In this document: in pieces, positions 17,528 to 45,205 of the stretch | Layout: the number at the start of each line of letters is the position of its first letter | Numbering within the stretch: position 1 is the stretch's first letter | NCBI GenBank assembly: GCA_963761335.1 | Contig: CAVXGR010000021.1 | Location: 78,242-142,241 of the forward strand | DNA: 64,000 nucleotides | Reading direction: 5' to 3' | Source of the DNA: an uncultured delta proteobacterium | GTDB taxonomy: Bacteria; Desulfobacterota; Binatia; HRBIN30; BPIQ01 | Made by a program: the position numbers and the translations under genes | Notes under the pieces: model-generated | Database searches by the model: none | What the model saw: the letters and a program-made list of their open reading frames with translations, nothing else | Told to the model about the DNA's origin: nothing

Positions 17528-20257
<2,730 letters not shown>

Positions 20258-20473
20258 CGCCGCCCCTCCTCGATGTTGTGGTGTCCCGCTATATGCCCCA
20301 CTATATCCTGTGGTGTCAAGGGATTTCTTCATGAGCCCGATTGTAGGCGAAGAGTGGGCGAAATTCGAGACTCTCGGGCGCGGTTGTCGGGCCCGGGCGC
20401 GGGTGATAGGCCGGCGCCGATGGCGAGACCAAAGGGACAGCTGTCGCGCGCCGGCGACACTCTGGGAGGGGTG

Positions 20474-20914
20474 ATGCGGCGCATCGATCCGGACCGCCGC
20501 ATCGAGGTCTATCGCCTGTGGAGCTTCTGGGATGAGGTGGTCGGCGAGGGCATCGCGCGCCGCGCGCAGCCGCAGCGGATGCGCGATCGCGTTCTCGTCG
20601 TCGCCGTCTCCAGCCACACCTGGATGCAGGAGCTGCAGTTCTTGAAGGAGAACATTCGCGAGCGCCTCAACCAGCGCCTCGGCGCACCCCTGATCGAGGA
20701 TCTGCGTCTGGTCTCGGGCAGTGTCAGGCAGCCGCCGGCGCGCAGCGAGGCGGCGGCGCCGCCGCCGGTCGCTGTCCCCGAGCTGCCGAAGACGGGATCC
20801 GCGGAGCTCGACGCGGCGCTGGCGCGGGTGGCGCACGCCTGCGCTCGCCGCCAGGCGGAGAGCCTGGCGGCGCGCAAGCCGAAGCCGAGAAAAGGGCGCC
20901 GGCGGTCCTCCTGA
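20474..20914 (+). CDS. DUF721 (DciA-like) protein
   Basis: GGGAGGG RBS. MRRIDPDRRIEVYRLWSFWDEVVGEGIARRAQPQRMRDRVLVVAVSSHTWMQELQF matches the DUF721/DciA pattern. Confidence 0.7.
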   Translation: MRRIDPDRRIEVYRLWSFWDEVVGEGIARRAQPQRMRDRVLVVAVSSHTWMQELQFLKENIRERLNQRLGAPLIEDLRLVSGSVRQPPARSEAAAPPPVAVPELPKTGSAELDAALARVAHACARRQAESLAARKPKPRKGRRRSS

Positions 20915-20931
20915 GCGGCGCCGCCGCTCTC

Positions 20932-21837
20932 TCACTCCGGAAGCAGGGTTGCCAGGCCGCTCTGCAGGTCGTCGGGTCCGAGAGCGCGGGCTCCGGCGGC
21001 AACCAGGCGCGCGTTCTGCGCGCCCCACGAGACCACGGTCTTGCCGCGCGCCAGCATGTCGAGGCCGAGCTGCTCCATGTGGCCGCCGGAGCGCGCCTCG
21101 ACGGCGATCACCAGGTCGGCGAGGGCCGCGATCAGCGCGTCGCGGCGGGCGCCGTTGGCGGGCGCCGCGTGGTTGTTCAGGCGAAATGGCGAGAGCACCA
21201 GGGTGCGGGTGCGGTCGAGGCGCAGGTGACCCGAGGTGAGGCCGAAGATGTCGCGCTCCGTCTCGTCGCCGAGAGCCGCGAACAGGCCGCGGTCGAGGAT
21301 GATGACGCGCGGTGTCTGTGCGGCGCGCGCCGACGCTGCGGCAATGCGATGGCCGAGCTTCATGGCGCCGCTCACCACGGCGAAGCCGCCGAGCGCCGCT
21401 GCCTCGACGATCTGGCGGGTGGCCACCATGGCCCCGCTCGAGGGCAGACGGGAGTTGAGCACGGCCGCCGCCGGCGACTGCAGCAGCGCCGTGTCGCCGA
21501 GGGCGAAGACCACCGGCGGCGGCGCCTTGAGGTAGTGCTCCCACACGGCCGGATAGCCGTGCGCGCCAAGCAGGAGCGGGTGGCCGCCGTGCTCGATGAA
21601 GCGCTCGGCGAGCATACCGCAGCGGCGCTCGTACTGGTCGCGAAACAGCGTCAGGCAGGCGACCGCCTCCTCCGAGAGGCGATAGGGATCGCGGTAGACG
21701 GCCTCCGGCAGGCGGAAGAACTCCTCGAGCGCCCGGCCCTGGGCGCGGTTGATGGTGAGAACGCGTGCCAGCCCCCGCGGCCCGACGCGCGGCAGCTCGG
21801 AGAGCAGAACACAATGGTAAGCGGAGATCTTGTCCAT
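20932..21837 (-). CDS. dprA: DNA-processing protein DprA (SMF family)
   Basis: Start at MDKISAYH (21837). Rossmann-like DprA core (PPVVFALGDTALLQSPAAAVLNSRLPSSGAMVATRQIVEAAALGGFAVVSGAMKLGHRIAA) and a C-terminal winged-helix domain. Confidence 0.8.
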   Translation of the reverse strand: MDKISAYHCVLLSELPRVGPRGLARVLTINRAQGRALEEFFRLPEAVYRDPYRLSEEAVACLTLFRDQYERRCGMLAERFIEHGGHPLLLGAHGYPAVWEHYLKAPPPVVFALGDTALLQSPAAAVLNSRLPSSGAMVATRQIVEAAALGGFAVVSGAMKLGHRIAAASARAAQTPRVIILDRGLFAALGDETERDIFGLTSGHLRLDRTRTLVLSPFRLNNHAAPANGARRDALIAALADLVIAVEARSGGHMEQLGLDMLARGKTVVSWGAQNARLVAAGARALGPDDLQSGLATLLPE

Positions 21838-23872: not shown

Positions 23873-25963
23873 CTACTGGGGGGTGCAGACGGTGATCGGC
23901 GCGCTGGTAACGCCCGTAGGGCCTTGGTCGGTGGTCACCTGGAGTTCCACCGGTGCGGTGCAGGTGAACGGCCAGCGCACCACCAGCATCGTCGGCGTGA
24001 CGGCGACGACGTCGGCGGGCGCGCCATCGATGCGCACGCAGTTGCCGCGCAGCGGCACACAGCGATTGCGGAGGGTGACGTTGGCGCAGTCGGTCTCGCT
24101 GAAGTGGCCGTCGATGGCGTTGAAGCCGGAGCCGAAGATGCGCAGGAGCCCTCCCTGCTCGCCGCGGGTGGGCTCCACCCGGTCGAGTATCGGCGGCTGC
24201 AGCGAGCGGTGCGCCTGCGCCGGTACGACAGTGGTGAAGGCGCCGTGATCGGACAGGTCGTGCGCCAAGATGGCGTCGGTGTTGCAGCTCGTGCCGGTGC
24301 CGCAGTGCTCCCACTGGTTGTTGATGGCGCTCATCTGCAGACCGGTGGCATTGCGGAAGTTGTCGCCGCCGACGTTGTTCTGGGTGAAGGCGTTGTTGCC
24401 AGCGCTTCCCAGCGGTCCACCGCCGAAGTCGCCCACCGAGGTGTTGGTGATGATGGCGCCGTCGACGCCGTTACAGACGCTGGTGCTGCCCTCGACCACG
24501 GCAGTGGCGCCGTCTCCGCCGTCGTTGGCGATGCGGATGCCGGAGCTGGCGTTGACCGCGAAGTAGGAGTCCTCGACGCTCGCCAGCGAGCTGGCGCGTA
24601 CCGAGATGCCGTTGGCGCCGTTGAAGCGCACGATGTTTCCCGCCGACTCCAGGTCCGAGAAGGCGCCGCTGCTGGTGTCGTCGGCGGGGCTGACGGAGAG
24701 ACCGTTCTGCGCGGTGCTGCCGCGGTTGCGCTCGATCAGGTTGTCCGCTGCCTGCACGTGGCCGCCGAGCGTGCTCTGGATACCGCCGTTCTGGTTGTCG
24801 TGGATCCAGCTGCCCTCGATGCGGGCGTAGGCGCCGGTGGTGACCTTGACGCCCTTGTCGGCGGCGCCCGAGATGTCGCAGTCGCGGACGATGTTCACCG
24901 TGTCGTCGAACCCCTTGCCGGCGCCGCCGTCGATGCCGATGCCGTCGGCGCTGGTGGCGTTCTGGACGATGCAGTGCTCGACCACGTTGCCGTCGGCCGC
25001 CGCCCCGGTGATGCTGAGCACGTCGCGGTCGCCGCTGCCGGCGTTCCGCAGCTGCATGCCGACGATGTGGTTGCGGGCGCCGGTGATCGACAGGGCCGGG
25101 TTGCCGAGCATGGCGCCGCCGGCATCGATGATGCGATTGCCGGGAAGGCCGTCCTCGTCGAAGCCGTCGATGGTGACCTCGTCGGAGTCGATGGTCGGCA
25201 GCGCGAAGGCGAGCTCGATCGCGATGGGCGACCCCGAGGGAAAGGCGGCCGGCGCGAACTGGATGAGCAGGGGCTTGGCGGCGCCGGCGGCGTCCTGCAG
25301 GGCCTTGCGCAGGGTGCCGTCGCCGGTGTTGGCCCTCTTTTGCACGGTGATGACCGTGGGAAACACGGTGAAGGCGAGGCGCGACGGGTCGGCGGCGGCG
25401 AGCAGCAGCGAGCGCCGGTACTGCTTCTGGCCGGTGTCGGGAGAGGTGACCTCGATGCTGTGTCGCCACGGTCCGGGAGCCAGGCCGGCGATCGGGCCGC
25501 AGCTGAAGCTGCCGCTGCCAGAGCAGCTCTGATGGTAGCTGGTTTCGCCGGCGCCGCCGGCGCAGCTTCCGCCGAGCGCCTGACCGCTGAGCACCACATT
25601 GACGCTGGCGGCGCCGCTGCGGTCGTCGATGTCGACCATCAGATCGGCGGTGGCGCTCGGGCAGGCCCGCGGGGTGCCCGTGGCGGTGGCCAGGGGCGTG
25701 GCGGTCGGCGTGGGCGTCGAGGTCGGCGTGCCGCTCTCGGTGGGTGTCCCCGTCGGTGTCGCCGTGCCGCCGCTGGCCACCGCGAGGGCGAGGGCGGGCA
25801 GGTCGGCCGCCGAGATGCGGCCATCGCCGTTGGGGTCGCAATCGGCAGCGCCGCTGCCGAAGATTGCCGGGACGATCTGCTCGACGGGCGGAGCTTGCCC
25901 CGGGCTGCAGGGTATGGGGCTCGCCGCGCCGGCGAGCCCCCAGGTGAGGGCGACCGCGGCCAT
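23873..25963 (-). CDS. Secreted protein with a dockerin-like Ca-binding loop, Thr/Pro linker, PbH1 parallel beta-helix repeats and a C-terminal IPT/TIG-like domain
   Basis: Start at MAAVALTW (25963) with a signal peptide. DCDPNGDGRISAADL motif. TPTGTPTESGTPTSTPTPTATP linker. Repeated NxxGxxxxGIxI-type beta-helix units. The opposite-strand 796-aa ORF is low-complexity antisense. Confidence 0.7.
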   Translation of the reverse strand: MAAVALTWGLAGAASPIPCSPGQAPPVEQIVPAIFGSGAADCDPNGDGRISAADLPALALAVASGGTATPTGTPTESGTPTSTPTPTATPLATATGTPRACPSATADLMVDIDDRSGAASVNVVLSGQALGGSCAGGAGETSYHQSCSGSGSFSCGPIAGLAPGPWRHSIEVTSPDTGQKQYRRSLLLAAADPSRLAFTVFPTVITVQKRANTGDGTLRKALQDAAGAAKPLLIQFAPAAFPSGSPIAIELAFALPTIDSDEVTIDGFDEDGLPGNRIIDAGGAMLGNPALSITGARNHIVGMQLRNAGSGDRDVLSITGAAADGNVVEHCIVQNATSADGIGIDGGAGKGFDDTVNIVRDCDISGAADKGVKVTTGAYARIEGSWIHDNQNGGIQSTLGGHVQAADNLIERNRGSTAQNGLSVSPADDTSSGAFSDLESAGNIVRFNGANGISVRASSLASVEDSYFAVNASSGIRIANDGGDGATAVVEGSTSVCNGVDGAIITNTSVGDFGGGPLGSAGNNAFTQNNVGGDNFRNATGLQMSAINNQWEHCGTGTSCNTDAILAHDLSDHGAFTTVVPAQAHRSLQPPILDRVEPTRGEQGGLLRIFGSGFNAIDGHFSETDCANVTLRNRCVPLRGNCVRIDGAPADVVAVTPTMLVVRWPFTCTAPVELQVTTDQGPTGVTSAPITVCTPQ

Positions 25964-26196
25964 CGACCAGAGCGCGCTGCGGGTGCAGCGCGACTCCTTC
26001 CTTTGCTGGCGTGGTCCTCGCATCTGGGCCGCCCATCAAACCATCGGACGCCGAGGCGTTCAATCGCGGCGTCGCCGTGCGTCGGCCGAAGTTGCGCCGT
26101 CCCGATCATTCCTGCAAGCTGCGTTGCCGAGAGCGCGACGCCGATGCCCGACTGCCACAGCCTCGAATCGCCGGTGCCCGCCGTCGCCGTCACCTG

Positions 26197-27722: not shown

Positions 27723-28477
27723 CCAGGCTCCCTCCCGAGCAGCGAGCGCGCCGCCGGCGAGCGCGGCCTCTCCAGGACCTGCTCGGGCGTGCCGCTCTCG
27801 GCGATGAGGCCCTCGTCGAGGACCACGACGCGGTGCGCGACGCGGCGCGCGAAGGCGATCTCGTGGGTCACGATCACCATCGTCTGTCCGGCGGCGGCGA
27901 GATCGGCGACCACCGCCAGCACCTCGCCGACCAGACGCTGGTCGAGAGCCGAGGTGGGCTCGTCGAGGAGCAGCACCAGCGGCTCCATCGCCAGGGCGCG
28001 GGCAATGGCGACGCGCTGCTGCTGGCCTCCGGAGAGGGTGTGCGGCATGGCCTCGGTGAAGCTCGACAGGCCCACCCGGGCCAGCAGCTCGCCGGCGCGC
28101 TGCCGCGCCGCCGCCGCGCCCATGCCCAGCACCCGCACCGGCGCCTCCATGACGTTGGCGATGGCGCTCAGATGCGGGAAGAGATGGAAGCTCTGGAACA
28201 CCATGCCGACGCGGGTGCGCACCGCCCGCAGTGCCGCGGCGTGGGCCCGCTCGCTCATTCCCGGCCACAGGCGGTGGCCGGCGATCTCGACCTCGCCGGC
28301 ATCGAACGGGGTCAGGTAGTTGAGAGCCCGCAGCAGCGTCGTCTTGCCGCTGCCCGAGGGACCGACCACGGCCACCACCTCACCGCGGCCGACGACGAGA
28401 TCGATGCCGCGCAGCACGTGGCTCGGTCCCCGGCGGGTGTGCAGGCCGCTCGCCGTGATGACCGGTGCGGCGCTCAT
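27719..28477 (-). CDS. Polar amino-acid ABC transporter ATP-binding protein
   Basis: Walker A GPSGSGKTT, signature LSGGQQQRVAIARAL, Walker B LLLDEPTSALD. Confidence 0.9.
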   Translation of the reverse strand: MSAAPVITASGLHTRRGPSHVLRGIDLVVGRGEVVAVVGPSGSGKTTLLRALNYLTPFDAGEVEIAGHRLWPGMSERAHAAALRAVRTRVGMVFQSFHLFPHLSAIANVMEAPVRVLGMGAAAARQRAGELLARVGLSSFTEAMPHTLSGGQQQRVAIARALAMEPLVLLLDEPTSALDQRLVGEVLAVVADLAAAGQTMVIVTHEIAFARRVAHRVVVLDEGLIAESGTPEQVLERPRSPAARSLLGREPG

Positions 28478-29946
28478 GCGGCGGCATGCCCCAGGCGGCT
28501 CTCGAGGCGTCGCGCCAGACGCGAAAGCGGATAGCTCAAGGCCAGATAGAGGGCGGCGCAGAGGAGACCGGGAATCAGCCAGCCGCGCATGTCGACGGCG
28601 GTGATGGTCATCTGCTTGGTCAGCTCGACCACCGTGATCACCGACACCAGAGACGAGTCCTTCAACAGGGAGATGAAGTCGTTGGCGATTCCGGGGAGTG
28701 CCACGCGCAGCGCCTGCGGCAGAACGATGCGGCGCAGCGTGAGGCCCTGTGACATGCCGAGGGCGAGCGCTGCCTCGGTCTGGCCGACCGGCACCGCCTC
28801 GAGCCCGGCGCGATACAGCTCGGCTTCATACGCGGCATAGTTCATTCCCAGCCCGAGGACCGCGGCGGTGAAGGCATCGAGCGTGAGCACGGGTGCCAGC
28901 CCGTAGTACAGCACGTAGAGCTGCAGGAGAACGGGGGTGCCGCGGAACAGCTCGATGTAGCCGGTGGCTGCCGCACGCAGGGGCGCGGCGCCGTAGCGGC
29001 GCACCACGCTGAGCAGCAGGCCGCCGCCGATGGCCACGGTCATGGCCAGCGCCGAGATGATCACGGTCACCGCCGCGGCGCGTAGAAAAAGGACGACGCG
29101 CCCCGCGGTCAGCTCCTTGCGCGGCGCCGCCGGATCGGATGCCGCGGGCTCGGCGCCGAGCCGCTGCTGGCGGTCGTTCCAGAGGTCCCAGCGCTGCAGG
29201 ATGCGGCGCAGCTCGCCGTCCGCCTGCATTGCCGCCAGCGCCTGGTCGACCGCCGCCAGCAGCCGTCGGTCGGCGGGGCGCACGGCGATGGCGTAGACAC
29301 CCTCGCCGACGATTGCCGCCTGTCGCAGGCCCGGCCGCACCAGGCCGTAGCGGCGGGCGATGATGTCGTCGAGGACGACGCCGTCGAGGCGCCCCTGCTC
29401 GAGATCCATGTAGGGCTCCTCGACCCCCTCGTAGATCACCGTGTCGATGCCGGGATCCGCCGCCACCAGATCGAAGGCGAGCGAGTTGCCGAGGGTGCCG
29501 ACGCGATGGCCGCGCAGGTCGGCGAGCGCGGCCACCTCGCCCTCGTCCTGGCGCACCACCAGCGTCTCGGAGAAGAGGTAATAGGGGCGCGTGAAAGCGA
29601 CGCGCCCGCGGCGCGCAGCTGTGACCTCCAGGCCGTTCAGGATCATGTCGAAGTCGCCGCGCTCCAGCGAGGGAATGAGGTTCTGCCAGTCGTTCTGGAC
29701 GAACTGGGCGCGCACCCCGAGACGCCGTGCGATGCCGTCGGCGATCTCGACCTCGAAGCCGACCAGGTGCGCCGGTTGCGCCGGATCCTGAAACACGTAG
29801 GGCTCGCCTCCCTGCATGTCGCCGCCCCAGAGCAGAACGCCGCGGCGCTGTACCGCCGTCAGTCCATCACCGCCGCCGGCGTGCGCCATCGCCGCCGCGA
29901 GCGCGACCCCGACCAGGGCGACAGCGGTAGCCGGCTTCCACTGCAT
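28474..29946 (-). CDS. Fused periplasmic substrate-binding and permease component of the polar amino-acid ABC transporter
   Basis: Signal peptide. PBPb-like N-terminal half, then a C-terminal His/Gln-type permease with five TM helices. GTGA overlap with the ATPase gene. Confidence 0.85.
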   Translation of the reverse strand: MQWKPATAVALVGVALAAAMAHAGGGDGLTAVQRRGVLLWGGDMQGGEPYVFQDPAQPAHLVGFEVEIADGIARRLGVRAQFVQNDWQNLIPSLERGDFDMILNGLEVTAARRGRVAFTRPYYLFSETLVVRQDEGEVAALADLRGHRVGTLGNSLAFDLVAADPGIDTVIYEGVEEPYMDLEQGRLDGVVLDDIIARRYGLVRPGLRQAAIVGEGVYAIAVRPADRRLLAAVDQALAAMQADGELRRILQRWDLWNDRQQRLGAEPAASDPAAPRKELTAGRVVLFLRAAAVTVIISALAMTVAIGGGLLLSVVRRYGAAPLRAAATGYIELFRGTPVLLQLYVLYYGLAPVLTLDAFTAAVLGLGMNYAAYEAELYRAGLEAVPVGQTEAALALGMSQGLTLRRIVLPQALRVALPGIANDFISLLKDSSLVSVITVVELTKQMTITAVDMRGWLIPGLLCAALYLALSYPLSRLARRLESRLGHAAA

Positions 29947-37550: not shown

Positions 37551-37967
37551 ATGCCTTGCAAGCGCATCTGGTTGCTGTGCGGGCTCGCGATTCTGCTGGC
37601 GGGAGTGGTTGCGAGCTGCTCGCGGACGGAGCCGGCGGCCCCCACGTCGTCGATCGCTCCCGCGGATCTGTACCAGCGCCTGCAGGCCGGAAAGGCTCCG
37701 GTGATCCTCGACGTGCGCAGCCCGCAGGAGTTCGCCGCGGGACACATCGTTGGCGCCATCAACATTCCCGACACCGAGGTGCAGCAGCACCTGCCGGAGC
37801 TGAACAAGTACCGCGATCAGGAGATCGTCGTCCATTGCGCCGGCGGCAAGCGCGCCGCCAGGGCCGAGAAGGTGCTGGTCGGTGCCGGGTTCTCACACGT
37901 GCTGGATCTGCAGGGCCACATGAACGGCTGGAAGGCGAAGGGCCTGCCCACCGAACCGTCGCCCTGA
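37551..37967 (+). CDS. Rhodanese-domain lipoprotein
   Basis: Lipobox VASC. Rhodanese active-site loop CAGGKRA. Confidence 0.8.
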   Translation: MPCKRIWLLCGLAILLAGVVASCSRTEPAAPTSSIAPADLYQRLQAGKAPVILDVRSPQEFAAGHIVGAINIPDTEVQQHLPELNKYRDQEIVVHCAGGKRAARAEKVLVGAGFSHVLDLQGHMNGWKAKGLPTEPSP

Positions 37968-38274: not shown

Positions 38275-41200
38275 ATGCGGCTAACGACCACCTGCGCGTA
38301 CCTGGGCCTGCTGTTGGCCTTGACTGCCGGCGAGAGCGGGGCAGTCGGATCTTTCGTCACCTTCGAGAGCGGCCAGGTGCGGCCGCTGGCGATGTCGCCG
38401 GACGGCAACACGCTGTTCGCTGTCAACACTCCGGACGATCGGCTGGAGACCTTCTCCGTCGATTCTTTTGGCCTGACCCATACGGGGTCGGTGCCGGTCG
38501 GCATGGAGCCGGTCGCCGTCGCGGCGCGCACCAATACCGAGGTGTGGGTGGTCAACCACCTCTCGGACAGCATCAGCATCGTCGACATGAGCCTGGTTCC
38601 GCCGCGGGTGATTCGCACTCTGCTGGTCGGCGACGAGCCGCGCGACATCGTCTTCGCCGGTGCCGCCCACGACCGCGCCTTCATCACCACGGCGCATCGC
38701 GGCCAGAACGATCCCATCGATCCGCAGCTCACCACGCCGGGAGTGGGGCGCGCCGACGTCTGGGTGTTCGACGCCATCAATCTGGGGCTGTCCCTGGGCG
38801 GCGACCCGCTGACCATCATCACGCTCTTCGCCGACACGCCTCGTGCCCTGGCCGTCACCCCCGACGGCTCCACGGTGTACGCGGCCTCCTTTCTCTCCGG
38901 GAACGAAACGACGGCGGTCTCCGAAGGCGCGGTGTGTGACACCAGCGACGCCAACGTCAACAATGAGGTGGTGGAGCTCGCTTGCAGCATCCAGGGCGTC
39001 ACCATGCCCGGCGGGCTGCCGCTGCCGCACCACAACTCCGCCGGCGACCGGGCCCCGGAGGTCGGGCTGATCGTCAAGTACGACGGCAGCCACTGGGTGG
39101 ATCAGCTGGGCCGCAGCTGGGACAACGCCGTCAAGTTCTCGCTGCCCGACGAAGACGTCTTCTCCATCAATGCCAACGCCACCCCTCCAGCGCAGACCGG
39201 CTTCTTCACCCATGTCGGCACCATGCTCTTCAACATGGCGGTGAACCCGGTGAACGGAAAGGTGTACGTGACCAACGGCGAATCGCGCAACGAGGTGCGC
39301 TTCGAGGGGCCGGGCATCACCAGCACCACGGTGCAGGGTCACCTGGCCGAGTACCGGATCACGGTGCTCGACGGAGCGAACGTGCTGCCGCGCCACCTGA
39401 ACAAGCAGATCGACTACAACGTTCGCCCGGCGCCGCTGGGGGTGAAGGACGACAGCCTGGCGACACCGCTGCAGATGGCGATCACCAGCGACGGGCAGAC
39501 GCTCTACGTCGCCGCCTTCGGCTCGAGCAAGATCGGCATCTTCAACACGGCGCAGCTGGAGAACGACACCTTCACGCCGAGCGCCGCCAACCACATCCCG
39601 GTGAGCGGTGGCGGCCCGAGCGGCATCGTCCTCGACGAGGCGCGGCAGAGGCTCTACGTCCTTACCCGTTTCGACAACGGCATCGCGGTCATCGACACCG
39701 CCACGCACAACGAGATCGACCACCTGTCGCTCTTCAATCCGGAGCCCCCGAGCGTCGTCAACGGCCGTCCGTTCCTCTACGACGCCTACTTCACCTCCAG
39801 CAACGGCGAGGCCTCCTGCTCCAGCTGTCACGTCTTCGGCGACTTCGACAACCTCGCCTGGGACCTCGGCAATCCCGACGACGTGATGATCCCCAACCCG
39901 CTGACCAAGAAGCTGCAGCAGGTGGCGCAGCTCCAGGGGACGAACGTCGATTTCGACAACTTTCATCCGATGAAGGGCCCTATGACCACGCAGACGCTGC
40001 GCGGGCTCAAGAACCACGGGACCATGCACTGGCGCGGTGACCGCGTGAACCAGAACGGCAACGTCTACGACTCCGACGTCGCTTTCCGCAACTTTCGCGT
40101 CGCCTTCCCCGGCCTGGTCGGCCGCGACTCGCAGATTCCCGAGTCCGACATGCAGGCCTTCTCCGACTTCGCCCTGCAGATCATTCAGCCGCCCAATCCC
40201 ATCCGCGCGCTCGACAACTCGTTGACCGCCGACCAGCAGGCGGGCAAGAACTTCATGACCGGCAGCCGACGCGCCGATGGCATCTTCGTCGGCGGCGGCA
40301 CCGGCTTCAACTGCGTGGGCTGCCACGTGCTCGACGCGTCCAACGGATTCTTCGGCACCAACGGCGACCAGAGCTTCGAGAACGAGACACAGGTTTTCAA
40401 GGTCGCGCAGCTGCGCAACATGTACCAGAAGGTGGGCATGTTCGGCATGCCCGGCGTCGACTTCTTCAGCAACCATTCGGGGGAGAACAACTTCATGGGG
40501 CCGCAGATCCGCGGCTTCGGTTTTCTCCACGACGGCAGCGTCGACACCGTCTTCCGCTTTCTCCACGCCAGCGTCTTCGACGACGGCGGGACCTTCAACC
40601 CGGTCGGCTTCAACGGCGGTGACACGCAGCGGCGGCAGGTCGAGCAGTTCATCCTCGCATTCGATTCCGACCTGGCGCCGATCGTCGGCCAGCAGGTGAC
40701 CCTGACCAGCACCAACGCGGCCGCCGTCTCGGCGCGCATCAGTCTCTTGGAGCAGCGCGCCGGCGCCGCCTTCGTCCTCAAGGGGATGCCGGGTGCGACC
40801 GAGTGCGACCTGGTGGTGAAGGGCGTCGTGGCCGGCGAGATGCGCGGCTGGGTGCGCACCGCCGCCGGAACCTTCCAGAGCGACCGCGCCGCCGAGTCTC
40901 CGCTGACCGACGCGCAGCTGCGGGCGCTGGCGGCGACGCCCGGAGAGGATCTGACCTTCACCGCGGTGCCCCCGGGCTCGGGCGTGCGCACCGGCATTGA
41001 TCGCGACGAGGACGGTTATCTCGACCGCGACGAGATCGACGCCGGCTCTGATCCCGCCGATGCGGCCAGTATCCCGGGCTCGGTCCCCTCACCGACCCCG
41101 ACGGCGACGACCACGGCAACCGCCACCGCGTCGACGACGATGACCTCGACACCGGTGTTGACGCCGACGATCACCAGCACGCCGATGGATACCGGAACAC

Positions 41201-41844
41201 CCACCATCACCTCGACGCCGGGGGACACGCCGACCGTGACTCCGCCGCTGCCGACCTCGACGGAGACGGCGAGCCCGACGATCACCGAAACCGGGACGGT
41301 GACATCGACGCCGACGGTGACGCCGACGTCGACGCCTCTCGGCGGCTGCAGCAGCGGTTCGTCGATGCAGCGGGCGGTGCTCAAGGTCCGCAGGGACCGC
41401 GACCCGGCTGGTGACGAGAGGCTCGTTCTCCAGGGCGAGGCCACCTTCTCGACTCCGCTCGATCCGCATGCCGACGGGCTCAGCTTTGCGGTCGCCGGCG
41501 CCAGCGGTGATCTCCTCTACAGCCGTACCGTGCCGGCGGGCTTCTGGTCGGTGAACGGCCGCGGTACTCGCTGGCAGTACAGGGAGCAGACCGGCACTCT
41601 GGCCGGCGGCATCGTCAAGGTGATCGTCATCGACAAGAGCAACCGAGCGCCGGGCCTCTACAAGTTCAAGATCGTCGGTCGCGACAGCGACTTCCAGATC
41701 GACCCGGGGCAGCTGCCGGTTCATTTCGAGGTCAGGCTGGGAGCCGCGGCGAGCCAGTGTGCCGCGCAGGCGTTCAACCCGGATGGGGCGGCGCGCCCGG
41801 CCTGTCGCATCTCGAGAAATCTCAACACGGTCACCTGCCGGTGA
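38275..41844 (+). CDS. Large secreted protein A: N-terminal beta-propeller-like region, di-haem cytochrome c peroxidase/MauG-like domain (CSSCH, CVGCH), DxDxDG Ca-binding-like motif, Thr/Pro linker, shared C-terminal module
   Basis: 1189 aa with a signal peptide. CxxCH codons at 39817-39831 and 40312-40326. CCP-like blocks HWRGDR, FKVAQLRN and GFLHDGSVDTV. The opposite-strand 761-aa ORF is antisense junk. Confidence 0.8.
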   Translation: MRLTTTCAYLGLLLALTAGESGAVGSFVTFESGQVRPLAMSPDGNTLFAVNTPDDRLETFSVDSFGLTHTGSVPVGMEPVAVAARTNTEVWVVNHLSDSISIVDMSLVPPRVIRTLLVGDEPRDIVFAGAAHDRAFITTAHRGQNDPIDPQLTTPGVGRADVWVFDAINLGLSLGGDPLTIITLFADTPRALAVTPDGSTVYAASFLSGNETTAVSEGAVCDTSDANVNNEVVELACSIQGVTMPGGLPLPHHNSAGDRAPEVGLIVKYDGSHWVDQLGRSWDNAVKFSLPDEDVFSINANATPPAQTGFFTHVGTMLFNMAVNPVNGKVYVTNGESRNEVRFEGPGITSTTVQGHLAEYRITVLDGANVLPRHLNKQIDYNVRPAPLGVKDDSLATPLQMAITSDGQTLYVAAFGSSKIGIFNTAQLENDTFTPSAANHIPVSGGGPSGIVLDEARQRLYVLTRFDNGIAVIDTATHNEIDHLSLFNPEPPSVVNGRPFLYDAYFTSSNGEASCSSCHVFGDFDNLAWDLGNPDDVMIPNPLTKKLQQVAQLQGTNVDFDNFHPMKGPMTTQTLRGLKNHGTMHWRGDRVNQNGNVYDSDVAFRNFRVAFPGLVGRDSQIPESDMQAFSDFALQIIQPPNPIRALDNSLTADQQAGKNFMTGSRRADGIFVGGGTGFNCVGCHVLDASNGFFGTNGDQSFENETQVFKVAQLRNMYQKVGMFGMPGVDFFSNHSGENNFMGPQIRGFGFLHDGSVDTVFRFLHASVFDDGGTFNPVGFNGGDTQRRQVEQFILAFDSDLAPIVGQQVTLTSTNAAAVSARISLLEQRAGAAFVLKGMPGATECDLVVKGVVAGEMRGWVRTAAGTFQSDRAAESPLTDAQLRALAATPGEDLTFTAVPPGSGVRTGIDRDEDGYLDRDEIDAGSDPADAASIPGSVPSPTPTATTTATATASTTMTSTPVLTPTITSTPMDTGTPTITSTPGDTPTVTPPLPTSTETASPTITETGTVTSTPTVTPTSTPLGGCSSGSSMQRAVLKVRRDRDPAGDERLVLQGEATFSTPLDPHADGLSFAVAGASGDLLYSRTVPAGFWSVNGRGTRWQYREQTGTLAGGIVKVIVIDKSNRAPGLYKFKIVGRDSDFQIDPGQLPVHFEVRLGAAASQCAAQAFNPDGAARPACRISRNLNTVTCR

Positions 41845-41866
41845 CCGGAAGGACATAGGATAGCCG

Positions 41867-44800
41867 ATGCGCGTTTTCCCTTGGCGGAAGCTTCTGCTGG
41901 CGCTGACGATACTCGGGCTGGGCGCGGCGATTCCCGCCGGTGCGCAGTCGTTCGTCACCTTCGAGAGCGGCCAGGTGCGGCCGCTGGCCCTCTCCCCGAA
42001 CGGGAGCCAGCTGCTCGCCGTCGATACACCCGACAACACCCTGGAGACCTTCGACGTCGCCCCCGGAGGGGTGACGCACGCCGGCTCGATCCCGGTCGGG
42101 CTCGAGCCGGTCGCCGTGGCCTTCCGCGGCGATACCGAGGCGTGGGTGGTGAATCACCTCTCCGACAGCGTCAGCATCGTCGACCTGTCGCTGACCCCGC
42201 CGCGGGTCGTGCGCACCCTGCTGGTCGGCGACGAGCCGCGCGACATCGTCTTTGCCGGGCCGGGCGGCAACCGCGCCTTCATCACCACGGCGCATCGCGG
42301 ACAGAACAGCCCCATCGATCCGCAGCTGACGACCGAGGGTGTCGGTCGGGCCGATGTCTGGGTCTTCGACGCCACGGCGCTCGGCTCCTCACTCGGCGGC
42401 GACCCGCTCACCATCGTCACCCTCTTCGGCGACACGCCGCGGGCGCTGACGGTGAGCCCCGACGGCAACACGGTGTACGCCGCCATCTTCGAATCCGGAA
42501 ACCAGACGACCTCCGTCTCCGAAGGCGCCGTGTGCAACACCAGCGCGACGCGCATCAATAACGGCACCGTCCAGCCGGCGTGCAGCATCTTCGGCGTGAC
42601 CATGCCGGGAGGCCTGCCGCTGCCGCACAAGAACATCGAGGGCATTGCCGCGCCGGAGACCGGCCTGATCGTCAAGTACGACCCGACGCTCAGCCGCTGG
42701 AACGACAACATCGGCCGCAACTGGAACAACGCCGTCGACTTCTCGCTGCCCGACGACGACGTGTTCACCATCGACGCCAGCGCCGCGACGCCGGTGGAGA
42801 CGGGCGCCTTTCCCCACGTCGGCACCATCCTGTTCAACATGATCGCCAACCCGGTCACCGGCAACGTCTACGTCACCAACACCGACGCCCGCAACGAGGT
42901 GCGCTTCGAGGGCACCGGCATCCTCGGCGGCAGCAGCGTCCGCGGTCATCTGCACGAGGCGCGGGTCACCGTGCTCGACATCGCCCACGGCGGCGTGGTG
43001 GTGCCCCGGCATCTCAACAAGCAAATCAACTACGCCGTGGTGCCCAGCCCCCCCGGGGTGAAGGAGCTGAGCCTGGCGACACCGATGGGGCTGGCCATCG
43101 ACAGCGCCGGCGCCACGCTGTACGTGGCCGCCTTCGGCTCCAGCAAGATCGGCGTCTACGACGTCTCCAGCCTGGAGGATGACAGCTTCGATCCGGCGAC
43201 CGTGCCGCAGATCTCGGTCAGCGGTGGCGGGCCGTCCGGTCTCATCCTGGACGAGGCCAACGGCCGACTGTACGCGCTGACCCGCTTCAACGACGCGGTC
43301 GCGGTGATCGACACCGGCAGCAAGCTCGAGATCGACAGCCTGCCGCTGCACAACCCGGAGCCGCCCTCGGTGGTGCAGGGGCGACCGTTCCTCTACGACG
43401 CCGAGCTCACCTCGAGCAACGGCGAGGCCTCCTGCGGCGGCTGCCACGTGTTCGGCGACTTCGACAGCCTGGCCTGGGACCTCGGCGACCCCGACAGCAA
43501 CGTCATCACCAACGTCAACCCCTTTCGGGTCGCGCAGCCGCCCGCGGGGTTGCCGGTCATCCAGTCGTTCCCCGATCACCATCCGATGAAGGGGCCGATG
43601 ACGACACAGAGCCTGCGCGGCCTCGCCAACGCCGGCCCGATGCACTGGCGGGGGGACCGCTCCGGCGGCAACGATCCGGGCGGAGATCCGCTGGACGAGG
43701 ACGCCGCCTTCAAGCACTTCAACGTCGCCTTTGCCGGCCTGCTGGGGCGCAGCGGTCCGCTGACCGCCGACGAGATGCAGAAGTTCACCGACTTCGCCCT
43801 GCAGATCACCTACCCGCCCAACCCGATTCGGGCTCTCGACAACTCACTTACCCCGGACGAGCAGGCGGGTCGCGACTTCTTCATGCACCCCCCTTCGCAG
43901 CCGTCGGACGTGTTCCAACCCTGCCATGGCTGCCACCAGCTCGATCCGGCGCAGGGCTTCTTCGGCACCGACGGGTTCTCCAGCTTCGAGAACGAGCCGC
44001 AGCAGCTCAAGATCGCGCATCTGCGCAACGCCTACCAGAAGGTCGGCATGTTCGGCATGCCCGATGTGGCATTCTTCAATCAGAGGACGACCGGGTTTCT
44101 CGGACCCCAGGTCCGCGGCTTCGGATTCCTGCACGACGGCAGCGTCGATACCGTCTTTCGCTTCCTCAACGCCGTCGTCTTCAACCAGCACCAGTTCGTC
44201 ATCAATCTCGGCGGCTTTCCCGACGGTCCGAGCGGCGGCGATCCGTCGGCGGGGGACCCGCTGCGGCGCCAGGTGGAGTCGTTCATCCTCGCCTTCGACA
44301 GCAACCTCAAGCCGATCGTCGGACAGCAGATCACGTTGACCGACACCAACGCGGCCACGGTAGGAGCGCGCATCGACCTGCTCTTGACGGGCGCCGCGGC
44401 CGGCGACTGCGACGTCGCCGTAAAGGGGGTCGTCAACGGCGCGCAGCGCGGCTGGTACCGCCTCGCCGACGGCAGCTTCCAGAGCGATCGCGCTGCGGAG
44501 GCGCCGATCACCGACACGCAGCTGCGCCTGCTGGCGGCCACCCCGGGCCAGGACCTCACCTACACCGCGGTTCCGGTGGGCTCCGGCCAGCGCATCGGCG
44601 TGAATCGCGACGGCGACTGTGCCTTCGATGGCGACGAGATCGACAGCGGTACCAATCCGGCGAGCGGCGTCGCGGTGATCATGTCGAAGCCGAAGCTGCG
44701 GGTGGCCCGCGACCTGGCACCGGCCGGAGACGAGAGGTTCGCCCTCAGAGGCAATCTGGAGCTGTGCAACGCCTCGGTCACGGTCGATCCGCTCACCGAC

Positions 44801-45205
44801 GGCTTCAGCTTCACCGTCTCCGACAGCAGCGGCACGCCGATCTTCACGCGCGTCATCCCGCCGGGCGCGGCGCCGACTTCGCACGATCCGGGCTGGAAGG
44901 TGAATGGGAAGGGCACGCGTTGGGTCTTCAAGGACAAGACCGGCCTCGTCGCCGGCGGCGTCGTCCGCGTCGTCGTCATCGACAAGACGGCCCACCAGCC
45001 CGGACTCTACAAGATCAAGGTGGTCGGCAAGCGGGGCAACTTCCAGGTCGACCCGAACGATCTGCCGCTGCGCGCCACCGCTGTCGTCGACACCGTCGAT
45101 CCCTGCCTGAGCAAGCTCTGCGGCCAGGTCGCCTTCAACGCCGATGGCCAGCCGCGCCCGGCGTGCGCCGCCAAGAACGGAGGCAAGACGATCCTCTGCC
45201 GGTGA
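41867..45205 (+). CDS. Large secreted protein B, a paralogue of A: beta-propeller-like region, di-haem CCP/MauG-like domain (CGGCH, CHGCH), shared C-terminal module, no Thr/Pro linker
   Basis: 1112 aa. Starts 22 bp after A's stop, with an AGGACATAGGATAG-type weak RBS. CxxCH codons at 43433-43447 and 43922-43936. Colinear with A along its whole length. Confidence 0.8.
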   Translation: MRVFPWRKLLLALTILGLGAAIPAGAQSFVTFESGQVRPLALSPNGSQLLAVDTPDNTLETFDVAPGGVTHAGSIPVGLEPVAVAFRGDTEAWVVNHLSDSVSIVDLSLTPPRVVRTLLVGDEPRDIVFAGPGGNRAFITTAHRGQNSPIDPQLTTEGVGRADVWVFDATALGSSLGGDPLTIVTLFGDTPRALTVSPDGNTVYAAIFESGNQTTSVSEGAVCNTSATRINNGTVQPACSIFGVTMPGGLPLPHKNIEGIAAPETGLIVKYDPTLSRWNDNIGRNWNNAVDFSLPDDDVFTIDASAATPVETGAFPHVGTILFNMIANPVTGNVYVTNTDARNEVRFEGTGILGGSSVRGHLHEARVTVLDIAHGGVVVPRHLNKQINYAVVPSPPGVKELSLATPMGLAIDSAGATLYVAAFGSSKIGVYDVSSLEDDSFDPATVPQISVSGGGPSGLILDEANGRLYALTRFNDAVAVIDTGSKLEIDSLPLHNPEPPSVVQGRPFLYDAELTSSNGEASCGGCHVFGDFDSLAWDLGDPDSNVITNVNPFRVAQPPAGLPVIQSFPDHHPMKGPMTTQSLRGLANAGPMHWRGDRSGGNDPGGDPLDEDAAFKHFNVAFAGLLGRSGPLTADEMQKFTDFALQITYPPNPIRALDNSLTPDEQAGRDFFMHPPSQPSDVFQPCHGCHQLDPAQGFFGTDGFSSFENEPQQLKIAHLRNAYQKVGMFGMPDVAFFNQRTTGFLGPQVRGFGFLHDGSVDTVFRFLNAVVFNQHQFVINLGGFPDGPSGGDPSAGDPLRRQVESFILAFDSNLKPIVGQQITLTDTNAATVGARIDLLLTGAAAGDCDVAVKGVVNGAQRGWYRLADGSFQSDRAAEAPITDTQLRLLAATPGQDLTYTAVPVGSGQRIGVNRDGDCAFDGDEIDSGTNPASGVAVIMSKPKLRVARDLAPAGDERFALRGNLELCNASVTVDPLTDGFSFTVSDSSGTPIFTRVIPPGAAPTSHDPGWKVNGKGTRWVFKDKTGLVAGGVVRVVVIDKTAHQPGLYKIKVVGKRGNFQVDPNDLPLRATAVVDTVDPCLSKLCGQVAFNADGQPRPACAAKNGGKTILCR

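Follow-up and report, generated by a model that had tools for sequence, protein, structure and literature searches.

The tandem genes and the domains they encode

In the 64,000-nucleotide stretch of contig CAVXGR010000021.1 analyzed here (the 64-kb window), which stems from an uncultured member of the Binatia, two large co-directional genes lie one behind the other: gene A (38275-41844, 1189 amino acids (aa)) and gene B (41867-45205, 1112 aa), separated by an intergenic gap of 22 bp (41845-41866). Both genes, and all of their features given below, are on the plus strand. Each open reading frame (ORF) encodes a leader, a beta-propeller, a dihaem domain, an alpha/beta domain, a TSP3-like motif and a C-terminal beta-sandwich module, in this order, and A has in addition a Thr/Pro linker ahead of the last of these. 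We narrowly favour a reading in which A and B are ancient paralogues of a huge family of Sec-exported, ~100-kDa c-type dihaem redox enzymes, with haem 1 as the catalytic and haem 2 as the relay haem, and in which both proteins form an isozyme pair. An initial annotation of the window, made from its letters and a list of ORFs, had given the positions, sizes, common direction and 22-bp spacing of the two genes; all of these match the ORF list, and every motif quoted there is present in the translations. The colinearity along the whole length that it had claimed was also found by alignment, with 63% identity between A and B over a 934-aa core and 41% over the C-terminal ~170 aa. Public data hold proteins identical to A (P0045) and to B (P0001).

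Each protein contains exactly two CxxCH haem c motifs, and A and B are the only convincing CxxCH-bearing genes within the window. In A, these are CSSCH (haem 1; aa 515-519, 39817-39831), read from the translation and lying in a column that is invariant in the family, and CVGCH (haem 2; aa 680-684, 40312-40326), likewise supported by family conservation; in B, they are CGGCH (haem 1; aa 523-527, 43433-43447) and CHGCH (haem 2; aa 686-690, 43922-43936), just as they had been annotated. The motifs are embedded in a domain of the CCP/MauG/HZS-gamma fold (CCP, cytochrome c peroxidase; HZS, hydrazine synthase), which spans aa ~486-779 (39730-40611) in A and aa 494-790 (43346-44236) in B. The domain of A is colinear with that of B, and a family profile matches HZS-gamma, BthA and CCPs. 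In particular, this profile was built from 18 diverse family domains and run with HMMER against PDB sequences, where it matched HZS-gamma (2e-10), BthA as the second best (6.5e-5), Nitrosomonas CCP (1.9e-4) and Shewanella CCP (6.9e-4).

The HMMER alignments paired the first CxxCH with the N-terminal haem motif and the second CxxCH with the C-terminal one, haem 1 of B aligning with the N-terminal (peroxidatic) haem of CCPs and with HZS gamma-I, and haem 2 with the C-terminal (electron-transfer) haem of CCPs and with HZS gamma-II. They also paired FKVPHLRN with FKVPTLRN of CCPs, and FLHDGS with PYFHDGS, and thereby reproduced the hand alignment of FKxxxLRN and HDGS with CCP motifs made in the initial annotation. 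That annotation had considered CxxCH motifs out of register with haem-binding sites as evidence against its assignment; the opposite was observed, since both motifs align with the known haem-binding sites of HZS-gamma and CCPs. At the level of the fold, three-dimensional similarity to solved CCP/MauG members was scored as present.

The N-terminal part of A (aa ~26-485; 38350-39729) is a YVTN/lactonase-type beta-propeller recognized by PF10282 and TIGR02276, and that of B (aa 28-493; 41948-43345) is a seven-bladed YVTN beta-propeller according to an AlphaFold2 (AF2) model, Foldseek, a profile search and TIGR02276. The YVTN repeats of TIGR02276 scored 44.3 bits in A and 34.7 bits in B, both above the cut-off of 27.85, while PF10282 gave 34.1 bits for A, above its cut-off of 21.7, and 20.6 bits for B, just below it. 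Within the AF2 model of B, residues 30-493 adopt the propeller fold, and predicted local distance difference test (pLDDT) values of the propeller were mostly 75-95. The full-length model of B returned only propellers in Foldseek, so that a domain-only model was needed for the dihaem region; the best PDB match of the full-length model was HZS-beta (5c2v_B; E=9e-15, TMt 0.74), after which other seven-bladed propellers ranked, with TMt values of 0.72-0.76 to seven-bladed folds. HZS-beta was also matched in a profile search of PDB sequences, at 2.5e-14. The N-terminal propeller proposed initially is thus confirmed, both by YVTN models above their cut-off and by an AF2 fold with seven-bladed best PDB matches.

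Downstream of the dihaem domain follows a conserved alpha/beta domain with VGQQ and ECDL motifs in A (aa ~780-906; 40612-40992), the counterpart of which in B (aa 791-912; 44237-44602) has a pLDDT above 90 in the domain model and harbors the invariant residues G819, Q820 and Q821. Although this domain is conserved family-wide, with invariant VGQQ and ECDL, it gave neither a Pfam or PDB sequence match nor a fold match. Next comes a TSP3-like Asp-rich motif of the calcium-binding type in A (aa ~907-932; 40993-41070), matched by Pfam TSP3_bac at E=6e-4, below cut-off, and a degenerate version of it in B (aa 913-931; 44603-44659), recognized from the sequence and from alignment with A. The calcium-binding-like motif reads DRDEDGYLDRDEIDAGSDP in A and NRDGDCAFDGDEIDSGTNP in B, and TSP3_bac matched 7 of 18 family members, with a best E of 8e-8. 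A Thr/Pro/Ser-rich linker of 90 aa (aa 936-1025; 41080-41349; 69% T+P+S), within which short imperfect DNA repeats occur at 41295-41336, is present in A and absent from B.

The C-terminal module comprises ~164 aa in A (41350-41841), where a beta-sandwich is predicted via homology to B, and 176 aa in B (44675-45202), where the AF2 model is an all-beta sandwich with pLDDT values of ~80-90. No Pfam or PDB sequence match was obtained for the module of either protein, and it was found in 12 of 83 related loci (L001-L083). In both proteins the module contains Cys, its final residues being ...CR. All three features that the initial annotation had described here, namely the calcium-binding-like motif, the conserved C-terminal module and the linker restricted to A, are therefore present. 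The C-terminal module could be a lineage-specific binding or sorting module. By analogy, the linker and module may tether or target the Binatia versions, and those of A would resemble the layout of catalytic domain, linker and binding module seen in secreted enzymes.

With regard to export, both N-termini carry a basic and then hydrophobic leader, which ends just ahead of the conserved mature start F-x-T-F-E-S-G. Since the homologue alignment shows a family consensus in which the first ~28 residues are variable and conservation sets in sharply at this F-x-T-F-E-S-G, a cleaved Sec leader is predicted for A (aa 1-25; 38275-38349), from its sequence and the family consensus, and for B (aa 1-27; 41867-41947), from its sequence. 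Both proteins look exported via Sec, as far as can be read from sequence, in agreement with the signal peptides annotated initially. The region has a GC content of 66-70%; long antisense ORFs (e.g., 38281-40566, minus strand) were rejected as genes, being high-GC shadows of plus-strand frames that are backed by thousands of homologues. Directly 5' of the ATG of gene A lies GGGAGGGG, and no RNA family, tRNA, convincing promoter or convincing terminator was found in the A-B region.

A large family without a conserved partner gene

A word-indexed homologue search at 90% clustering returned more than 7976 sequences, which is a lower bound, and an exhaustive HMMER scan with the dihaem half gave 3002 clusters (50% identity) at E<=1e-3 and 759 at E<=1e-30. 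A relative is present in at least 547 species in one-genome-per-species data. The best 120 of the more than 7976 homologues are 894-1218 aa long, and all 120 have exactly two CxxCH motifs; moreover, each of the six Cys/His positions of the haem motifs is retained by at least 99% of the 272 family sequences compared, so that the two-haem-motif pattern is not a product of chance. Within the same 272 sequences, K575, M578 (97%), T580, Q581, H593, W594, R595, D597, F615, F618, Y723 and K725 are kept in more than 95%, and M728 and H756 in more than 90%. In full-length matches the dihaem domain starts at about residue 470-520 and the propeller is consistently N-terminal; the homologue search proposed in the initial annotation thus reveals a propeller-dihaem fusion that is conserved across the family.

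The best 80 loci show 51-64% identity over residues ~28-932, and their hosts are Binatia, Myxococcota, sulfur-oxidising and other Gammaproteobacteria, Entotheonella, Acidobacteriota and others. Cultured myxobacterial hosts include Sorangium, Polyangium fumosum, Archangium gephyra, Hyalangium and Vitiosangium, and the sulfur-oxidising Gammaproteobacteria are represented by Sulfuricaulis, Thiohalobacter, Acidiferrobacterales and Chromatiaceae. From Binatia to Myxococcota, Gammaproteobacteria and Acidobacteriota, the family core consists of the propeller, the CCP/MauG/HZS-gamma-fold domain, the alpha/beta domain and the TSP3-like motif, to which a Binatia subclade adds the C-terminal beta-sandwich module, tethered by the Thr/Pro linker in A. 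Where homologues have public names, these are 'YncE/YVTN beta-propeller', 'lactonase' or 'hypothetical', and neither Pfam nor NCBIfam has a model that recognizes the catalytic half of the family.

Two individual members deserve mention. A protein 53% identical to B is encoded on a contig labelled 'MAG: Klebsiella pneumoniae' (L077, CAMBZJ010000007.1; MAG, metagenome-assembled genome), which is probably mis-binned or mislabelled. In a Binatia MAG, a regular family member is preceded, ~1.3 kb upstream, by a distant paralogue of 1050 aa (L022:749-3901, plus strand) that is 27% identical to B over residues 31-692. The first haem motif (CASCH) and HWDG are retained in this paralogue, and its second site reads C-SRARA-CH, not CxxCH. 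It by itself matches HZS-beta (8e-12) and HZS-gamma (3e-5) in the PDB, which suggests that large propeller-dihaem proteins make up a broader superfamily.

The A-type orthologues P0072, P0054 and P0060 show 75-76% identity with A as against 62% with B, and B-type orthologues reach 71% with B as against 64% with A. As either copy is closer to orthologues from elsewhere than to its neighbour, a recent tandem duplication was rejected, and A and B are ancient paralogues. Most family members are single, a second copy within 6 kb being found in 4 of the 83 related loci, and Binatia genomes hold several diverged paralogues each. The same order, A and then B, was seen again in two further metagenomic Binatia contigs, whose flanking genes differ: in L084, an A-type gene is followed by an overlapping 1111-aa gene, and in L085 an A-type gene is followed, 26 bp on, by a fragment 79% identical to B. 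On the basis of this recurrence, the pair appears to be an old unit in the Binatia subclade, probably co-transcribed. Of the two traits whose conservation had been raised initially, the fusion is widespread, and the tandem order was seen in these two further contigs, with a nearby second copy in 4 of 83 loci.

The search for partner genes covered the neighbours in the window, look-ups at distant loci and a clustering of 640 ORFs from 84 loci, followed by a scan of neighbours for haem motifs. Upstream of A, the window contains genes for a rhodanese, a GHMP kinase and an alpha/beta hydrolase; downstream of B, there are genes for a short-chain dehydrogenase/reductase (SDR), an amidohydrolase, an enoyl-CoA hydratase (ECH), TerB, a P450 and CoA-transferases. 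No neighbour is conserved, as the commonest neighbour family, a generic SDR, occurs in 9 of the 84 loci, and the families recurring across these loci are all generic (SDR, ABC ATPase, ECH, two-component). Nor was a recurrent haem-protein partner found among the 84 loci, in which CxxCH-bearing neighbours are sporadic. An HZS-alpha-type neighbour did not turn up in the 84 clustered loci, on which no HZS-alpha model was run directly, and a mau-type cluster or adjacent substrate-protein gene is absent among the window neighbours, with none conserved across loci. Given that no neighbour is conserved in 84 loci, an A/B-type gene looks self-sufficient.

Several features of the surroundings were recorded in passing. 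The rhodanese ORF (PF00581, E=7e-22) spans 37551-37967 (plus strand), and no such ORF was seen beside family members in the other loci. In a Binatia MAG, several consecutive ORFs for multihaem cytochromes (L005:1-2589, plus strand), with as many as 12 CxxCH in one ORF, are located a few kb upstream of a family member, an arrangement that is not recurrent. On the minus strand of the window, a single 490-aa ORF (28474-29946) joins SBP_bac_3 (family-3 solute-binding) and BPD_transp_1 (ABC permease) domains; a 716-aa right-handed beta-helix protein (PF13229), large and probably secreted, is encoded at 23873-26023; and a 1428-aa ORF for a class II ribonucleotide reductase lies at 17528-21814, with its first ~570 residues devoid of a domain assignment. 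This stretch may be an over-extension in high-GC DNA or an N-terminal addition.

Proposed function and alternative explanations

Bacterial CCPs have a peroxidatic haem at the N-terminal site and an electron-transferring one at the C-terminal site. A similar division holds in HZS-gamma, where electrons enter at haem gamma-II and catalysis takes place at gamma-I (PMC12607021). Because CCPs and HZS-gamma share out these roles in such a way, we infer that haem 1 would be catalytic in the A/B family and that haem 2 would exchange electrons. In the mechanism we propose, both haems would be attached in the periplasm, and haem 2, at the C-terminal motif, would trade electrons with a soluble partner and relay them to haem 1, at the N-terminal motif, across Trp594 of HWRGDR. 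Haem 1 would then be the catalytic site, by analogy with CCPs and HZS-gamma, and the fused propeller would pack against the dihaem domain, as HZS-beta does on HZS-gamma, where it may shape or gate access to haem 1. As to the reaction, the data point weakly to a peroxide- or O2-driven oxidation or reduction of a small, widely available substrate outside the cytoplasm, a chemistry that would fit the cross-phylum conservation, the stand-alone gene, the diverged Binatia paralogues and the mainly aerobic hosts. A hydrazine-synthase-type reaction is less likely.

Several observations weigh against this proposal. The initial annotation had named PF03150 (cut-off 25.6 bits) as a profile with which its CCP/MauG assignment could be checked, and this check fails: full-length A and B gave no match and the isolated B domain reached 14 bits (E=0.083), a result that, taken literally, contradicts the assignment. 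Confidence in both AF2 models is lowest in the haem region, where pLDDT drops to 40-70 around both haem motifs, and Foldseek matches of the domain-only model were weak, the best being HZS-gamma (E=4e-3, TM 0.3). Although 259 of 264 sequences retain the W594 of HWRGDR and the motif resembles FWDGRA of CCPs, this stretch is absent from the printed HMMER alignments to CCP, so the putative equivalence of Trp594 to the CCP Trp reflects the likeness of two motifs and not an alignment. The distal and sixth haem ligands are not assignable from sequence; for the sixth ligand of the second haem, inspection of partial alignments by eye revealed no conserved Met, His or Tyr at the CCP, HZS-gamma or MauG position. 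Furthermore, the contact between propeller and haem domain is assumed by analogy with HZS, and the gene context of the 84 loci gives no pointer to a substrate or to the use of H2O2.

Part of this can be accounted for. The weak Foldseek support is expected, because the haem domain was modelled without haems and at a pLDDT of 40-70. Of 18 family members, 16 were matched by PF03150 at E<=0.1, the best E being 6.3e-6, and, in spite of the failed check on A and B, the homology of the dihaem domain to the CCP superfamily is, to judge from the profile alignments, real. Regarding the ligands, the consensus after H756 reads DGSxDTxxxFLxxxxF, without a conserved Met, His or Tyr, and M728 and Y723, both located in a family-specific insert, are candidates.

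The proteins might instead be reductases of the HZS-gamma kind, in which haem 1 would reduce a small oxide of nitrogen or sulfur (e.g., NO to hydroxylamine, nitrite or an S-oxyanion) with electrons fed by haem 2 and a tunnel through the propeller. We regard this as rather unlikely. The nearest solved relatives of both halves are indeed HZS-beta and HZS-gamma and not CCPs, WDLG after haem 1 is common to the family and HZS-gamma but not to CCPs, members occur in the sulfur-oxidising Gammaproteobacteria named above, and a rhodanese ORF lies 308 bp upstream of A. However, no third conserved Cys matches gamma-Cys165, and a Trp stands at what would be the gamma-His144 position, as in the non-functional homologues described in PMC12758564. 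The 84 loci offer no HZS-alpha-like or other conserved partner, the NCBIfam HZS models scored 11-43 bits against cut-offs of 560-1250, and the hosts are mostly aerobic soil heterotrophs. Still less probable, and in our opinion very unlikely, is an ordinary periplasmic CCP that detoxifies H2O2 and has acquired accessory domains. It would agree with the CCP fold and motifs, with export and with the lack of a conserved partner gene, a usual situation among ccpA-type genes, but across phyla a further ~700 residues are conserved, at 51-64% identity, the distal region (HPMKGPMTTQ, HWRGDR) is invariant and very different, and the Met ligand is absent at the CCP position. In addition, the several diverged paralogues per Binatia genome argue for substrate diversification rather than housekeeping detoxification. 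A further alternative is a protein-modifying enzyme similar to MauG/MbnH, whose propeller would dock a specific protein substrate for long-range hole transfer from a bis-Fe(IV) dihaem centre; a protein substrate as for MauG had been one suggestion of the initial annotation. The conservation of Trp594 between the haem motifs is in line with such an enzyme; however, MauG-type enzymes are encoded beside their substrate (mau cluster, mbnP, BthA partner; PMC6405878), and as no neighbour is conserved in the 84 loci, a dedicated protein substrate is unlikely. Inspection also revealed no conserved Tyr at the MauG ligand position, and we consider such an enzyme highly improbable.

How A and B relate to each other is a separate matter, and here an obligate heteromeric complex, comparable to the multi-subunit hydrazine synthase, has to be weighed against independent isozymes. 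The A-then-B tandem is found in three Binatia contigs that differ in their flanks, its genes lying 22-26 bp apart or overlapping, and A and B belong to distinct, old orthologue groups, both of which would suit a complex. On the other hand, of the 4 loci among 83 with a second copy nearby, two have it on the opposite strand; myxobacterial and gammaproteobacterial loci carry a single gene, which indicates that the fold functions without a paralogous partner; and both A and B keep every invariant catalytic-region residue. An obligate complex is unlikely in our estimation, and A and B are best read, from their sequences, as co-transcribed isozymes that would have diverged in substrate or localisation. 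Both options had been put forward in the initial annotation: the substrate-diverged isozymes fit best with the closer orthologues elsewhere and the mostly single copies, and the heteromeric complex is retained as a rival.

The family combines a very large size with unusually strong conservation across phyla and is present in cultivable myxobacteria, and its identity as a propeller plus CCP-fold dihaem enzyme provides a testable handle on enzymatic dark matter in soil and sediment bacteria. Being a remote relative of HZS beta-gamma, whose evolutionary origin is actively debated, it adds an aerobic, alpha-less branch to the story of hydrazine synthase origin. It is therefore a good target for enzyme discovery and relevant to that origin, while the sequences of A and B show no new chemistry. 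A more far-reaching possibility, which we consider distinctly unlikely, is that the family represents a new catalytic class of exported dihaem enzyme, with the propeller forming part of the active site or tunnel system, which would perform a widespread extracytoplasmic redox reaction on a small N/S/O substrate and constitute the free-living aerobic branch of the lineage that gave rise to HZS beta-gamma.

Relation to hydrazine synthase and other dihaem enzymes

Compared with bacterial CCPs (Pseudomonas, Nitrosomonas, Shewanella and YhjA), the A/B family aligns at both haem motifs, at the G-R/K-x-L-F/Y-D lead-in, at FKVPxLRN and at xHDGS, and like them it appears to be exported. It differs from them by a conserved insert of ~30 aa (YQKVGMFG...) between LRN and HDG, by lacking an equivalent of the CCP ligand Met that serves the electron-transfer haem ~14 residues after the HDG His, and by extending ~700 residues beyond CCPs, propeller included. 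With MauG, MbnH and BthA it would have in common an invariant Trp between the haem motifs, if the putative equivalence of Trp594 holds; these enzymes are without an N-terminal propeller, whereas the A/B family has neither a conserved substrate gene nor an evident Tyr ligand. RoxA, an extracellular rubber oxygenase and 70-kDa dihaem relative of CCPs, is also without a propeller and is the weakest superfamily match to the family. Any likeness to the layout of such polymer-active extracellular enzymes would lie in the linker and C-terminal module of A.

The best solved matches for the propeller and dihaem halves of the family are HZS-beta and HZS-gamma, respectively. The Kuenenia enzyme (chains B and C of 5c2v) has its parts arranged as in A and B, a seven-bladed YVTN propeller coming first and then a dihaem domain with two CxxCH, and beta and gamma are fused in Scalindua, the NCBIfam model for fused HZS-BC being NF052342. 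Hagglund et al. 2025 (PMC12758564) report fused beta-gamma homologues outside anammox as 'highly prevalent in environmental bacteria'. Since fused HZS beta-gamma and these homologues exhibit the combination of a propeller with a CCP-like dihaem domain, it is not unprecedented; the initial annotation was right in its domain call and wrong in presenting the architecture as undescribed. Literature searches for the propeller-dihaem architecture outside the HZS context, and for Binatia together with CCP, retrieved nothing.

The resemblance to HZS extends to WDLG directly after haem 1, which the family and HZS-gamma have in common and CCPs do not. Yet, in place of gamma-His144, at a position deduced from the motif, the family has a Trp, as do the non-anammox homologues of PMC12758564. 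There is no equivalent of gamma-Cys165 either: the four motif cysteines are the only invariant Cys of the dihaem domain, and the position ~21 residues after W594, as mapped by spacing and not by structure, is an invariant Phe (F615). A/B family proteins measure ~1000-1200 aa, compared with ~690 aa for HZS-BC, their propeller has ~465 aa with large insertions versus 350 in HZS, and the alpha/beta domain, the TSP3-like motif and, here, the C-terminal module are additional to HZS beta-gamma. Unlike HZS beta-gamma and the clade I-IV homologues of PMC12758564, family members in the 84 clustered loci have no adjacent HZS-alpha homologue, FG-GAP protein or ABC genes, and this lack of an alpha-type partner argues that the family is not a hydrazine synthase. 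In the same vein, the NCBIfam models NF052340, NF052341 and NF052342 scored 43, 11 and 32 bits, far below their cut-offs of 560, 625 and 1250, and the hosts are mostly aerobic soil heterotrophs and sulfur oxidisers, in contrast to the anammox bacteria that harbor HZS.

Among the matches listed in the accessible hit tables of PMC12758564, Sorangium, Archangium, Hyalangium and Vitiosangium do not appear, which is no proof of absence, and the Polyangium and Binatia entries that are listed correspond to other proteins, the Binatia beta-gamma having 659 aa. The ~1000-aa A/B family is distinct from HZS beta-gamma and from the homologues described in that study. It is not new in its kind of architecture; it is a large uncharacterised family built on a known pairing of modules.

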